In this document: in pieces, positions 15,301 to 18,300 of the stretch
Numbering within the stretch: the first letter of the stretch is position 1
Layout of the letters: each line of letters begins with the position of its first letter
Source: Escherichia coli
GTDB taxonomy: Bacteria; Pseudomonadota; Gammaproteobacteria; Enterobacterales; Enterobacteriaceae
Assembly (NCBI RefSeq): GCF_030013205.1
Contig: NZ_CP122648.1
Direction: 5' to 3' (one strand)
Length of the DNA: 64,000 bases
Program-made: the position numbers

Positions 15301-18300
15301 GCCGTGCCGTGGATCTTATTGTCAGTTTGACCGGAGGTCAGTACCAACACATCAGCCCCTTTTTCATCGGCTTTTTTGATTAAATCTTCTTTTGCATCTG
15401 CAGTCGACATTTCATTACTGGTTGAAATATCACCTATTTTTTCATATTGCGATTCAACCTTTTCAAATTCCGCTTTGGTCATTAATTCTGCGGCATAGAC
15501 ATTGGTAACGGCAAACGCTAACGCACCGACTAACATTTTAGAGATTATTTTCATATTACGGCTCCAGAGTTGTTATCACACTATCACCCACCCACATTAT
15601 TGGGTTGATTAATAATTAGTTCAGTCAGGGCATAAACGCCAGTAACCGGAAATAAGACACTTTGTGATCTCTCTCGCACCCGATTATTTTTGGTAGAAAT
15701 ATGATGAAGTTACTTCACTTATTTATGGATGAAATCACTATGGATCCTTTGCACGCCGTTTATCTGACCGTAGGACTGTTCGTGATTACTTTTTTTAATC
15801 CGGGAGCCAATCTCTTTGTGGTAGTACAAACCAGCCTGGCTTCCGGTCGACGCGCAGGGGTGCTGACCGGACTGGGCGTGGCGCTGGGCGATGCGTTTTA
15901 TTCCGGGTTGGGTTTGTTTGGTTTGGCGACGTTAATTACGCAGTGCGAGGAGATTTTTTCGCTTATCAGAATCGTCGGCGGCGCTTATCTCTTATGGTTT
16001 GCGTGGTGCAGCATGCGCCGCCAGTCAACACCGCAAATGAGCACACTACAACAACCGATTAACGCCCCCTGGTATGTTTTTTTTCGCCGCGGATTAATTA
16101 CCGATCTCTCTAACCCGCAAACCGTTTTATTTTTTATCAGTATTTTCTCAGTAACATTAAATGCCGAAACACCAACATGGGCACGTTTAATGGCCTGGGC
16201 GGGGATTGTGCTCGCATCAGTTATCTGGCGCGTTTTTCTTAGTCAGGCGTTTTCTTTGCCCGCAGTGCGTCGTGCTTATGGGCGTATGCAACGCGTTGCC
16301 AGTCGGGTTATTGGTGCAATTATTGGTGTATTCGCGCTACGCCTGATTTACGAAGGGGTGACGCAGCGGTGAGCAGATAATTTACTCTCTACGTAATCAA
16401 CCTGATTTGCCGAATCCCGACCATCGGCGATGATAGCCCCCGTAATGCGTGGTCCTTATTTCCGATAAGTTTACTTGAGTCTTTAGCTTCCCATTTCAGC
16501 CCACTCTCCCCTGTGTGGGCTTTTTTCATTGGTCTGACCCGTCCTGAATAGCCAAACAATGGTAATGTTCCACTTTGCAGGGATGATAATAAGGGGAGCT
16601 GATTCAGAAGAGTTATGAAAAGTTGGACCGCCATCGAGGCCTCGAACCCCGTACCATACAACAATCCTGGTTGTCGTCTGCTCTTCCTGATGAGCTAATG
16701 GCGGTTTTTGATATGAGCCTTACAGCATATTTTCTGTCAGGCTTGAGTGCGATGCGTAAGATACAGAAAAGACCCCACACAAACATGATGGAATTATGAT
16801 TTTTTTAATATGAATGTCAACCCACACATTCACAAAACATCTGCATGAGATCATTTTTTATACACCGTATAGCTGCGAAACCACTGCTGATGCTTTTTTA
16901 AGCGAAGTGTCGCCGATCACAACAAAATATCGGCGAAAAAGGCGGTGGAATGCCATTTGGCATACGGATATACAGATGAAATGATCACCTGCTTTGCGAT
17001 TCACTCTCTGGTGGAATAACAACTCGCAGGTGGAACCCTTTCTGAACTAAAGAGTGTAGCGGATTTTAACGTGCTTATTTACAGGATAATATCTGTCACC
17101 TAATTCCTGCACTCTATTAGATATCCATTGATTTAATCGCGCATCATCTCTGTATGTTTTTACGTCCAGAACAGAGAGCAATAACATCACCAGTGATTCA
17201 GGAAAAACAGGGTAGATATTTTTTAAGTGTAATAATAATCCATGCGCAAGCGCCTGCTTAATGGGTGCGTCGGTCTCCGGAATAGACGACATTTCGCGAA
17301 GCCATTTTTCCACATGCATACACTCTTTCCCTTTAGGGAAAAGTCTCAGCAAAGGCATATGGTGTTCAAGAAGAATACATTTGCAATCTGTTCGCACTGA
17401 ATCGATAAACTGCACTAATTTCTTAAGCCCGGTAAAGCGTCCAGCCTGCACGTTTGCTTTAATATCAAGAAACGCATCGTCCTGGTCATATACCCAAACT
17501 GTCCCTTTTTGATTTTCAAGTATGCGAAAAACAAACTTAACCGGGTGATCAGGGTAATCCATCCAGTCATAAAATCCAGGGAAATCATTAAACTGCACAT
17601 TTATGGTGAGTGCGTTATCGTCTGACCACTCACAGTCTCGTACGGCAGCCATGAGATGAATGAGTTTGTCGTCATCGACTAAATCATCACGACAATCATA
17701 GGGATAATCATAATATTGTTTAATCAAAACCTTGAATATATCGACACAGGAGACCAGGGAGCTTTTGATATCCTCTGGTAACTGATTGTTTTTTACTGTA
17801 TTAAGTATGCTTTGTTGCGTATATGGCATCAAATTATTGTGCGGAGCTTTTAATGATATCATCGCGATCTCTCTTAAATAAAAATAAACGTCGCAGATAA
17901 TAAAGCCCTGATTAAACCAGGCACTATCAGAAATCGCTCATAACTAACGTGTGAAGTATTGTGTACTGGAGGGAGTTAATTTAACAATTTGAATTTACGT
18001 TATAGGTTTTACTGCTACTTTGATATTATTTCGCTCTCCTTAACTAAAAAGTTAAGTGGAGAGCGAAGTTAATATGTTAAACCACAGGGTATTTATTAAT
18101 TTTTTCAGTCTGTTAGTGTGCGATTATCGATAACAAAACGATATTTCACATCTCCTCGCAGCATTCGCTCATAGGCTTCATTAATTTGATCGGCCCGAAT
18201 CATCTCTATATCAGCCACGATGCCATGTTCGGCGCAAAAATCGAGCATCTCCTGAGTTTCTGGAATGCCGCCAATCATAGAACCGGCTATCGCACGGCGT

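Follow-up and report, generated by a model that had tools for sequence, protein, structure and literature searches.

The AT-rich yahM-yahL interval of Escherichia coli: a tRNA-like element, a yahL gene block and an annotated small ORF

In E. coli K-12, the DNA between yahL and yahM carries xtpA, which encodes a predicted product of 60 aa and has been described as a leaderless mRNA (Muto et al. 2022, PMID 35081614, J Biochem 171:459; as recorded in RegulonDB v12, PMC10767902). The title of that paper reports an effect on GcvB. The lambdoid and Stx phages phiP27, TL-2011c and PhiR49_2 carry an ileZ-argN-argO tRNA cluster. AT-rich, horizontally acquired ORFan islets combine low GC and GC3, restricted taxa, patchy presence and evolution faster than that of their neighbors. 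Finally, polysaccharide co-polymerases of the Wzz/PCP-1 type (WzzB, FepE, WzzE) have an N-in/C-in topology with two transmembrane (TM) helices. Each of these systems resembles part of the locus described here.

Gene order and base composition

The window, that is, the whole 64,000-nt stretch of E. coli DNA analyzed, has the gene order prpR-yahO-yahN-yahM-yahL-yahK ... betA-ykgH. Coordinates were taken from the PGAP annotation of a strain that is 100% identical across 15000-19200. They agreed with the original prediction for yahM, yahL and yahK, as did the position of ykgH. The features that bear on base composition were as follows:

16389-16634, minus strand: yahM ORF, 81 aa (PGAP annotation; GC 0.467)
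17047-17862, minus strand: yahL coding sequence, 271 aa, cytoplasmic orphan protein (PGAP annotation)
17863-18104: yahL-yahK spacer, the most AT-rich piece (GC 0.326)
18105-19154, minus strand: yahK (PGAP annotation)
41455-42123, plus strand: ykgH, 222 aa (annotation; GC 0.366)

The span 16373-18104 had been flagged as an AT-rich islet carrying yahL and yahM. Indeed, its GC content was 0.404 as compared to a window mean of 0.502, and only 0.7% of 1,732-bp windows were equally low. The low value was due to yahL (GC 0.395) and the yahL-yahK spacer. The GC3 of yahL was 0.397 as compared to a mean of 0.533, and the gene ranked fourth among the 39 genes of the window. At the yahK-proximal end of the spacer, a hairpin (~18030-18069) was kept in the outgroups. 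In contrast to the claim made for it, yahM was not AT-rich: it ranked 12th of 39, and its GC of 0.467 compares with 0.494 for yahN. Similarly, the flank 16665-17046 (GC 0.421), which had been called non-coding, contains a tRNA-like element, the xtpA ORF and a sigma-70 promoter.

The low GC content of ykgH, the second flagged islet, was borne out, with a GC3 of 0.372 and the second-lowest rank of the 39 genes. However, the span 16373-18104 is one of six GC troughs within the 64 kb, and yahO (GC 0.377) and rclB (GC 0.363) are AT-rich to the same degree as the flagged genes. Therefore, neither islet stands out as unique within the window. The annotation of K-12 already covers yahL, yahM, xtpA and ykgH, so that the observation as originally posed is real but ordinary. 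It also carries little weight, as E. coli has many AT-rich orphan genes. We read the flagged interval instead as three layers that differ in age, namely the tRNA-like element, the yahL block and yahM, within a variable part of the chromosome. We assign this reading a probability of about 0.7.

The tRNA-like element and xtpA

Three features lie between yahM and yahL:

16613-16786, minus strand: xtpA ORF, 57 aa, running through the tRNA-like element (K-12 annotation b4845, ORF comparison)
16624-16704, minus strand: tRNA-like element with a cloverleaf, an encoded CCA and a non-canonical anticodon arm (ARAGORN 'Ser(gga)')
16793-16820, minus strand: predicted sigma-70 promoter, TTGACA-16-CATAAT, 11/12 matches (sequence prediction)

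The K-12 gene b4845 (xtpA) maps onto 16604-16786 of the window. The two loci share their place between yahL and yahM, an identical tRNA-like sequence, the frame and start of the ORF, and a near-consensus promoter. They differ in the length of the product, which is 57 aa in this window versus 60 aa in K-12 because the stop occurs three codons earlier. The -10 hexamer ends 7 nt ahead of the ATG, and the predicted transcript start (~16786) coincides with the ATG itself. Thus, the locus has the arrangement of the leaderless mRNA: the same position, an ORF passing through tRNA-like sequence and a predicted start at the initiation codon.

The minimum free energy fold of the element is a cloverleaf (dG -30.8, z -2.7), with a GGTTCGA T-loop and a TCCA end. 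The anticodon loop, CCAGGA or CAGGAUU, lacks U33 and is not a canonical 7-nt loop. Searches with the Rfam tRNA model RF00005 gave no match at E ≤ 1 over 4.2 kb or at E ≤ 10 over 151 nt. The element shared 77-86% identity with the tRNA in the middle slot of the ileZ-argN-argO clusters of lambdoid phages, with a value of 85% for the middle tRNA of phiP27. The acceptor stem, D-arm, T-arm and TCCA end were near-identical. In contrast to the phage clusters, the copy on the chromosome stands alone: ileZ, argO, Q, methylase and lysis genes are all missing from its surroundings, and its anticodon arm is non-canonical where PhiR49_2 has a normal CUUCGAA loop. A literature search on ileZ/argN/argO returned unrelated papers only. 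On these comparisons, the tRNA-like element is old and is kin to the 'argN' tRNA of the lambdoid-phage late region; a strong sigma-70 promoter probably drives its transcription as the xtpA mRNA.

Within Escherichia, the element was 100% conserved from E. albertii to E. coli, and formed an island of identity against a lineage that is otherwise 12-17% divergent. In both E. albertii and the SCPM lineage, codon 4 of the XtpA ORF is a stop. Klebsiella, Citrobacter, Serratia, Pseudocitrobacter and Salmonella diarizonae have relatives of the element, lying at unrelated sites of their chromosomes. Across four Klebsiella species, the element again stood out as a conserved island within a variable spacer. 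The variable arm of the family failed to align in register. Judged from these alignments, the conserved functional unit may be the tRNA-like RNA rather than the XtpA peptide. We tentatively suggest that it represents an argN-related, non-decoding family spanning the Enterobacterales, whose members have a common acceptor/D/T frame, end in an encoded NCCA and have an 'anticodon' arm reduced to a variable hairpin. As conservation of the element does not depend on the XtpA frame, and as other genera have relatives of it, it can be tested whether the reported phenotype stems from the peptide or from the RNA.

The yahL block

Comparison with other genomes delimited the AT-rich DNA more narrowly than the flagged span:

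16843-18024: AT-rich islet of 1,182 bp with yahL as its sole gene (GC 0.396; edges from BLAST)
17034-17868: 835-bp segment deleted in yahL-less E. coli, comprising the yahL ORF plus 13 and 6 bp (junction in strain TUM13773)

The presence and edges of the block were read from BLAST comparisons. E. albertii (L017) and Escherichia sp. E1V33 (L029) lack the block: homology ends at 16842 and restarts at ~18008-18095, and in its place each of the two genomes has a short spacer, which can be aligned with that of the other. E. coli and lineage L021 are contiguous over both edges. The edges were the same in E. coli and in the divergent SCPM/L006 lineage. By this coincidence of edges, the block is of single origin. 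At yahN, the yahL-bearing SCPM/L006 lineage and the yahL-less E1V33 are sisters (dS 0.35), each separated from E. coli by a dS of ~0.7. Because of this relationship, the distribution of the block calls for two events or more, or else for an old polymorphism.

Within E. coli, yahL DNA was detected in 4,075 of 5,426 complete genomes, while the locus was present in 5,234; 1,351 genomes were without yahL DNA. In strain TUM13773, the deletion junction reads GCAGGTGG/CTCTCTTAAAT. The same junction was found in 1,073 of the 5,426 genomes, including LF82, NRG857C and NC101, and these genomes have kept the flanks of the block. LF82 and NC101 are known strains of phylogroup B2. A large clade of E. coli that includes them has lost the yahL ORF through one deletion. 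Since the shared deletion takes out the entire ORF, a yahL amplicon is lost in the 1,073 genomes. A yahL-based assay would therefore under-count the deletion lineages, LF82 and NC101 among them.

The divergence of yahL from its counterpart in the divergent Escherichia lineage bears on the age of the block. The dS of yahL (0.72) equals those of yahK (0.67) and yahN (0.75), so any acquisition was old, not recent. The corresponding dN/dS values were 0.147 for yahL, 0.021 for yahK and 0.039 for yahN. On these ratios, yahL is a genuine gene under purifying selection, 4-7 times more relaxed than at its neighbors. The block has co-diverged with the adjoining genes and codes for a real protein.

The matching dS values are also what would be expected if the block were ancestral to Escherichia and inherited vertically, having been deleted from E. 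albertii and E1V33, with its low GC reflecting relaxed constraint or a local mutation bias. Moreover, the sister relationship of the SCPM lineage and E1V33 requires at least one loss in any case, and the deletion common to 1,073 genomes indicates that this locus is easily deleted. However, two separate lineages share the identical left edge at 16842 and carry the alignable spacer in place of the block, the GC3 of yahL falls well below the mean, and no YahL homologs from outside Escherichia were found among the billions of proteins searched. We therefore regard vertical descent as rather improbable. The block lies between the xtpA promoter and the yahK terminator. The reading we prefer is that it was gained from a foreign source rich in AT, as opposed to having been lost on two occasions.

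Such a gain would differ from a typical islet acquisition. The block has a deviant composition and is absent from related genomes, and in this, as in its restricted taxa and faster evolution, it is like other AT-rich horizontal islets. Unlike these, it has no mobility genes, att repeats or identifiable donor, and its acquisition would be ancient. Specifically, no integrase, transposase, flanking repeats or donor was identified at this one-gene block, and a search of 16843-18024 found no terminal direct or inverted repeats of ≥7 bp. The foreign or accessory origin put forward in the original prediction is supported for the yahL block, which is patchily present and restricted to Escherichia, but not for yahM.

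Two specific routes of entry were rejected. A search of a phage collection gave matches to the tRNA-like element only; as the match is limited to this 89-bp piece, a phage origin of the whole islet was discarded. Classical integration at a tRNA site was likewise dismissed because 139 bp separate the block from the 5' end of the tRNA-like element, upstream of which it lies, and because it is without repeats.

The statement that YahL and YahM have no recognizable domain was upheld by searches of Pfam, NCBIfam, PHROGs and PADLOC, none of which yielded a match. As YahL homologs, searches of 5.8 and 1.84 billion proteins returned proteins from Escherichia, fragments, and a single protein of 26% identity (P0027), and an onward search from P0027 found no further relatives. 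The apparent 48% identity of P0010 to YahL was an artefact, as the assembly behind it is frameshifted and error-prone. No fold relatives of the AF2 model of YahL were found, which is weak evidence because the confidence of the model is moderate (pLDDT 64). Our best guess is that YahL is a dispensable, niche-specific cytoplasmic accessory protein.

It had also been proposed that the AT-rich DNA at yahL and ykgH is bound by H-NS and transcriptionally silenced as xenogeneic. The preference of H-NS for such DNA is established, and the GC content here is 10-17 points under the window mean. Binding of minor sigma factors inside genes is typical of spurious promoters within AT-rich genes. Indirect evidence comes from genomic SELEX, in which RNA polymerase carrying any of three minor sigma factors gave peaks inside yahL (PMC5493296), and the yahM promoter, mapped by Reg-Seq, is repressed by IHF (bioRxiv 10.1101/2025.05.13.653802). 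Against silencing, a full-text literature search for yahL and H-NS returned nothing specific, and the adjoining xtpA promoter is near-consensus for sigma-70 and reportedly active. We consider the chances of H-NS silencing at yahL and ykgH to be even. The block may be kept quiet by nucleoid proteins such as H-NS and IHF.

yahM and ykgH

One additional feature bears on the nature of yahM:

16496-16528, plus strand: hairpin and T-run, the likely yahN terminator, inside the yahM ORF (structure in alignment)

yahM is outside the islet: its GC is ordinary, E. albertii also has the region, and the ORF lacks conservation. As annotated by PGAP and EcoCyc, it is a small-protein gene; the ORF is intact in this window, in K-12 and in most E. 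coli, and a Reg-Seq promoter has been assigned to it. However, the ORF is frameshifted in the yahL-less B2 strains, where PGAP calls a pseudogene. It is also broken in two other Escherichia lineages, L006/L021 and E. albertii, and the region is missing from a third, E1V33. The position of the ORF is similarly at odds with a protein gene: its ATG falls in the acceptor stem of the tRNA-like element, on the 3' strand of that stem, and the ORF crosses, in antisense, the likely yahN terminator, a hairpin that is 98% conserved as compared to the divergent lineage. Its codon usage was the most deviant of the 39 genes, a ranking to be read with the shortness of the gene in mind, and no homologs or families were found in the four databases searched for domains.

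Based on these comparisons, yahM is probably not a conserved protein gene, and we consider its annotation as a genuine small-protein gene unlikely to be correct. Given the Reg-Seq promoter and the intact ORF in most E. coli, YahM may still be a young functional peptide. Most likely, however, yahM forms the 3' portion of the xtpA/tRNA-like transcript and is untranslated. That yahM is probably not a protein gene bears on y-ome lists.

YkgH had been likened to Wzz-like proteins on the basis of its topology, and this part of the proposal stood: TM helices were predicted at ~22-42 and ~188-208 (hydropathy peaks at 18-45 and 185-214), with a periplasmic region of ~145 aa between them and lysine-rich flanks on the cytoplasmic sides. 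Membership of the family was not supported. The Pfam Wzz and GNVR profiles matched in the right order, at residues 8-52 (E = 1e-3) and 150-212 (E = 0.18), and weak NCBIfam matches to WzzB and CpsC-type proteins gave a faint N-terminal resemblance. However, every profile match was under its curated cut-off (Wzz, 19.8 bits versus 25.5; GNVR, 12.2 versus 27.7), and the hhalign alignment with WzzB and FepE covered only the TM1 region, at a probability of 1.4%.

Other comparisons likewise spoke against a Wzz-like protein. BLASTP against WzzB gave no match, nor did a PDB profile search give any sequence match. The AF2 model (pLDDT 46) was too poor to be compared with the PCP periplasmic fold of an alpha/beta base and a long helical hairpin. 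The periplasmic part is ~100 aa shorter than the ~240 aa of WzzB, and the neighbors are betA and ykgG (lutC) rather than a glycan cluster. A role for YkgH as a divergent, shortened co-polymerase of polysaccharides, modulating the chain length of glycans, is thus doubtful. The gene itself was near-core, occurring in 4,956 of the 5,426 complete genomes, and the YkgH homologs found were all from Escherichia.

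Base composition, gene content and YkgH

The window derives from the E. coli chromosome. Over 15000-19200 it matched strain K_EC180 at 100% identity, and >5,000 other complete genomes at 95-99%. The features discussed here are listed below.

Features of the yahM-yahL region and of other genes in the window. Coordinates of prpR, yahO, yahN, yahM, yahL, yahK and ykgH are from the PGAP annotation; ranks are for GC content.
13592-15178, +, prpR
15279-15554, -, yahO; GC 0.377
15701-16372, +, yahN; GC 0.494
16389-16634, -, yahM; GC 0.467, rank 12 of 39 genes
16613-16786, xtpA open reading frame; 57 aa here, 60 aa in K-12
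16624-16704, -, tRNA-like element (ARAGORN)
16820 to 16793, -, near-consensus sigma-70 promoter, TTGACA-16-CATAAT
17047-17862, -, yahL; GC 0.395, GC3 0.397, rank 4 of 39 genes
18105-19154, -, yahK
41455-42123, +, ykgH, between betA and ykgG; GC 0.366, rank 2 of 39 genes
yahM-yahL spacer; GC 0.432
yahL-yahK spacer; GC 0.326
rclB; GC 0.363

The GC content of 16373-18104 was 0.404, as compared to 0.502 for the window, and 0.7% of 1,732-bp windows were equally low. Six troughs as deep as this one occurred within the 64 kb. The low GC content is real, yet unremarkable in this genomic region. In the GC scan, yahL, its upstream spacer (yahL-yahK) and ykgH were low and yahM was not; the original prediction of AT-rich DNA therefore holds for the first three alone. 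Silencing of this DNA by H-NS, as also proposed, would be plausible. Equally deep troughs were seen at pdeL with its upstream region (33351-35800) and at rclA-rclB-rclC (47651-49900).

YkgH is confined to Escherichia and is near-core (4,956 of 5,426 genomes); its gene neighbors betaine and lactate genes. The protein has the two hydrophobic segments described previously (residues ~22-42 and 188-208), flanked on their cytoplasmic sides by lysine-rich stretches, a topology like that of the polysaccharide co-polymerases. Matches to Pfam Wzz (residues 8-52, E = 1e-3, 19.8 bits versus a cut-off of 25.5) and GNVR (residues 150-212, E = 0.18) were weak, BLASTP against WzzB and a search of PDB sequences yielded no match, and hhalign against WzzB and FepE aligned TM1 alone (probability 1.4%). 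The AF2 model (pLDDT 46) was unusable. Thus, the Wzz-like topology stands, but membership of YkgH in the co-polymerases is not supported by these comparisons.

Three minor observations concern other parts of the window. Just 3' of prpR, 15154-15212 (-) gave a weak, sub-threshold match to Rfam naRNA4 (27 bits, E = 0.066) that resembles a REP-type palindromic element. An ABC-transporter permease ORF (20194-21165, -) is intact here, at 323 aa, and annotated as frameshifted in K_EC180. Finally, an IS1 that interrupts the allH-like gene of K_EC180 is absent from the window, which therefore stems from a different strain.

The tRNA-like element, xtpA and yahM

The flank 16665-17046, thought to be non-coding, is not empty: it holds a tRNA-like element and the annotated gene xtpA. 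Indeed, the curated K-12 record places xtpA (b4845) between yahL and yahM. In the RegulonDB v12 paper (PMC10767902), xtpA is credited to Muto et al. as a published tRNA-like leaderless gene. The sigma-70 promoter ends 7 nt upstream of the xtpA ATG, a distance that fits a leaderless transcript. All the genes discussed at the two flagged sites, ykgH included, are already annotated in K-12.

The minimum free energy structure of the element is a cloverleaf (dG -30.8 kcal/mol, z = -2.7); its T-loop reads GGTTCGA and a terminal TCCA is encoded. The third arm lacks a canonical anticodon loop, and the Rfam tRNA model had zero matches in the 151 nt around the element even at E ≤ 10. The element was 100% identical in a lineage diverged by ~12% at yahK and ~17% at yahL, with surroundings that fall to 50-90% identity. 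The XtpA frame is open in E. coli and Escherichia sp. E1V33 only. E. albertii and the divergent Escherichia lineage SCPM have TAG as codon 4, so the frame may be young, possibly an addition to an older tRNA-like transcript. Codons 1-4 occupy 16775-16786; the fourth reads TGG in E. coli and AAG in E1V33.

The element is related to the middle tRNA in the ileZ-argN-argO cluster of lambdoid phages, a cluster with Q or methylase genes on one side and stx or lysis genes on the other. Such kin occur, for example, in phiP27 (85%), TL-2011c, mEp460, PhiR49_2 and a phage-like plasmid. Phage and chromosomal copies hardly vary in their acceptor, D and T arms. The PhiR49_2 copy has a normal CUUCGAA loop (tRNA-Arg), whereas the third arm is rearranged and 4 nt longer both in the phiP27 type and on the chromosome.

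Scanning one genome per species for the pattern yielded 26 loci. An identical 77-nt element was present in E. albertii, E1V33 and a divergent 'E. coli'. Relatives that keep the acceptor/D/T frame, with 'anticodon' loops of 4-10 nt and an NCCA end, occurred in Klebsiella, Citrobacter, Serratia, Pseudocitrobacter, Salmonella diarizonae and Buttiauxella; examples from the scanned contigs (L017-L042) are L032 2753-2823, L038 5736-5806 and L028 7411-7481. Most relatives outside Escherichia lie at unrelated, non-prophage chromosomal sites, and a comparison of four species from the Klebsiella oxytoca complex again shows a conserved island inside a variable spacer. This family-wide conservation, irrespective of the XtpA frame, appears worth recording. 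Klebsiella relatives adjoin scsAB-like genes and a LysR gene, and a Citrobacter relative adjoins a pair of genes for a class A beta-lactamase and a LysR protein. In E. albertii (L017 1055-2874), a 23-bp remnant from the 3' end of yahK comes after the element, with yahJ next; this locus thus lacks yahK and the neighboring ABC-transporter genes.

The yahM ATG (16634) falls within the 3' acceptor strand of the element, and the ORF runs antisense across a plus-strand hairpin and T-run (16496-16528, +) that is likely the yahN terminator. The ORF is unbroken only in yahL-bearing E. coli (the window and K-12). In yahL-less strains a frameshift makes it a pseudogene, in two other lineages it is fragmented, and E1V33 lacks the region. 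A yahM promoter repressed by IHF was reported using Reg-Seq (bioRxiv 10.1101/2025.05.13.653802). The status of yahM as a protein gene is doubtful, which also appears to merit recording.

Origin, coding status and loss of yahL

In BLAST comparisons with E. albertii and E1V33, homology runs from yahN through the tRNA-like element, ends at 16842, and returns at the yahK terminator hairpin (~18008-18095). Their empty sites contain mutually alignable spacers of ~90-140 bp. E. coli and the SCPM lineage instead carry a 1,182-bp block, 16843-18024 (GC 0.396), whose sole gene is yahL. Its edges are the same in both, so the block has a single origin. No terminal direct or inverted repeats of at least 7 bp were found at the block. 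Judged by dS at yahN, E1V33 groups with the SCPM lineage as its sister (0.35), each ~0.7 from E. coli; the distribution calls for a gain combined with a loss, or for a long-standing polymorphism. The shared structure of the empty site, the low GC3 and the lack of a homolog outside Escherichia favor insertion. The proposal of an acquired islet agrees with yahL; this islet is smaller than first proposed and old, and yahM lies outside it.

Between the window and the SCPM lineage, dS was 0.72 for yahL, 0.67 for yahK and 0.75 for yahN; the corresponding dN/dS values were 0.147, 0.021 and 0.039. The neighbor-like dS and the dN/dS of 0.147 indicate that yahL is a real protein-coding gene that co-diverged with its neighbors under purifying but relaxed selection. 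As predicted, neither YahL nor YahM has a recognizable domain: searches of Pfam, NCBIfam, PHROGs and PADLOC returned no family match. Against 5.8 billion and 1.84 billion proteins, YahL matched only its own Escherichia alleles (98, 88 and 80% identity), fragments, and a single distant homolog of full length, P0027 (26% identity, E = 1.7e-11). The latter is encoded in a separate islet of ~30% GC in a rare genome labelled E. coli (L008 8001-8828; GCA_009799345.1), beside genes for a 1,350-aa invasin/intimin-type adhesin, a TPR class-II chaperone of type III secretion and an SseC-like translocon protein; its gene had 0 matches in 5,426 complete E. coli genomes. The AlphaFold2 model of YahL (pLDDT 64, pTM 0.61) comprises an N-terminal helix and five-stranded sheet followed by a helical bundle, and a structure search with this model found no significant relative. 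In genomic SELEX (PMC5493296), RNA polymerase holoenzymes of three minor sigma factors gave peaks that fall within yahL. Another database protein, P0009 (236 aa, on a 2-kb contig), fuses residues 71-143 of YahL with response-regulator and Hpt domains and is probably an assembly chimera.

The locus was present in 5,234 of 5,426 complete genomes and yahL DNA in 4,075; none was detected in the other 1,351. The yahL-less allele retains both flanks of the block and lacks exactly 17034-17868 (835 bp), the ORF together with a further 13 and 6 bp. A 120-bp probe spanning the junction aligned contiguously to 1,073 of the 5,426 genomes, including LF82, NRG857C and NC101, which belong to phylogroup B2. 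From this shared junction, we infer one ancient deletion. The deletion appears worth recording for its meaning for a YahL qPCR assay published as 'E. coli/Shigella-specific' (PMC11057252). When the primers were read against the sequence, the amplicon (17163-17275) lay wholly within the deleted 835 bp, and the forward primer had 2 mismatches to the window.
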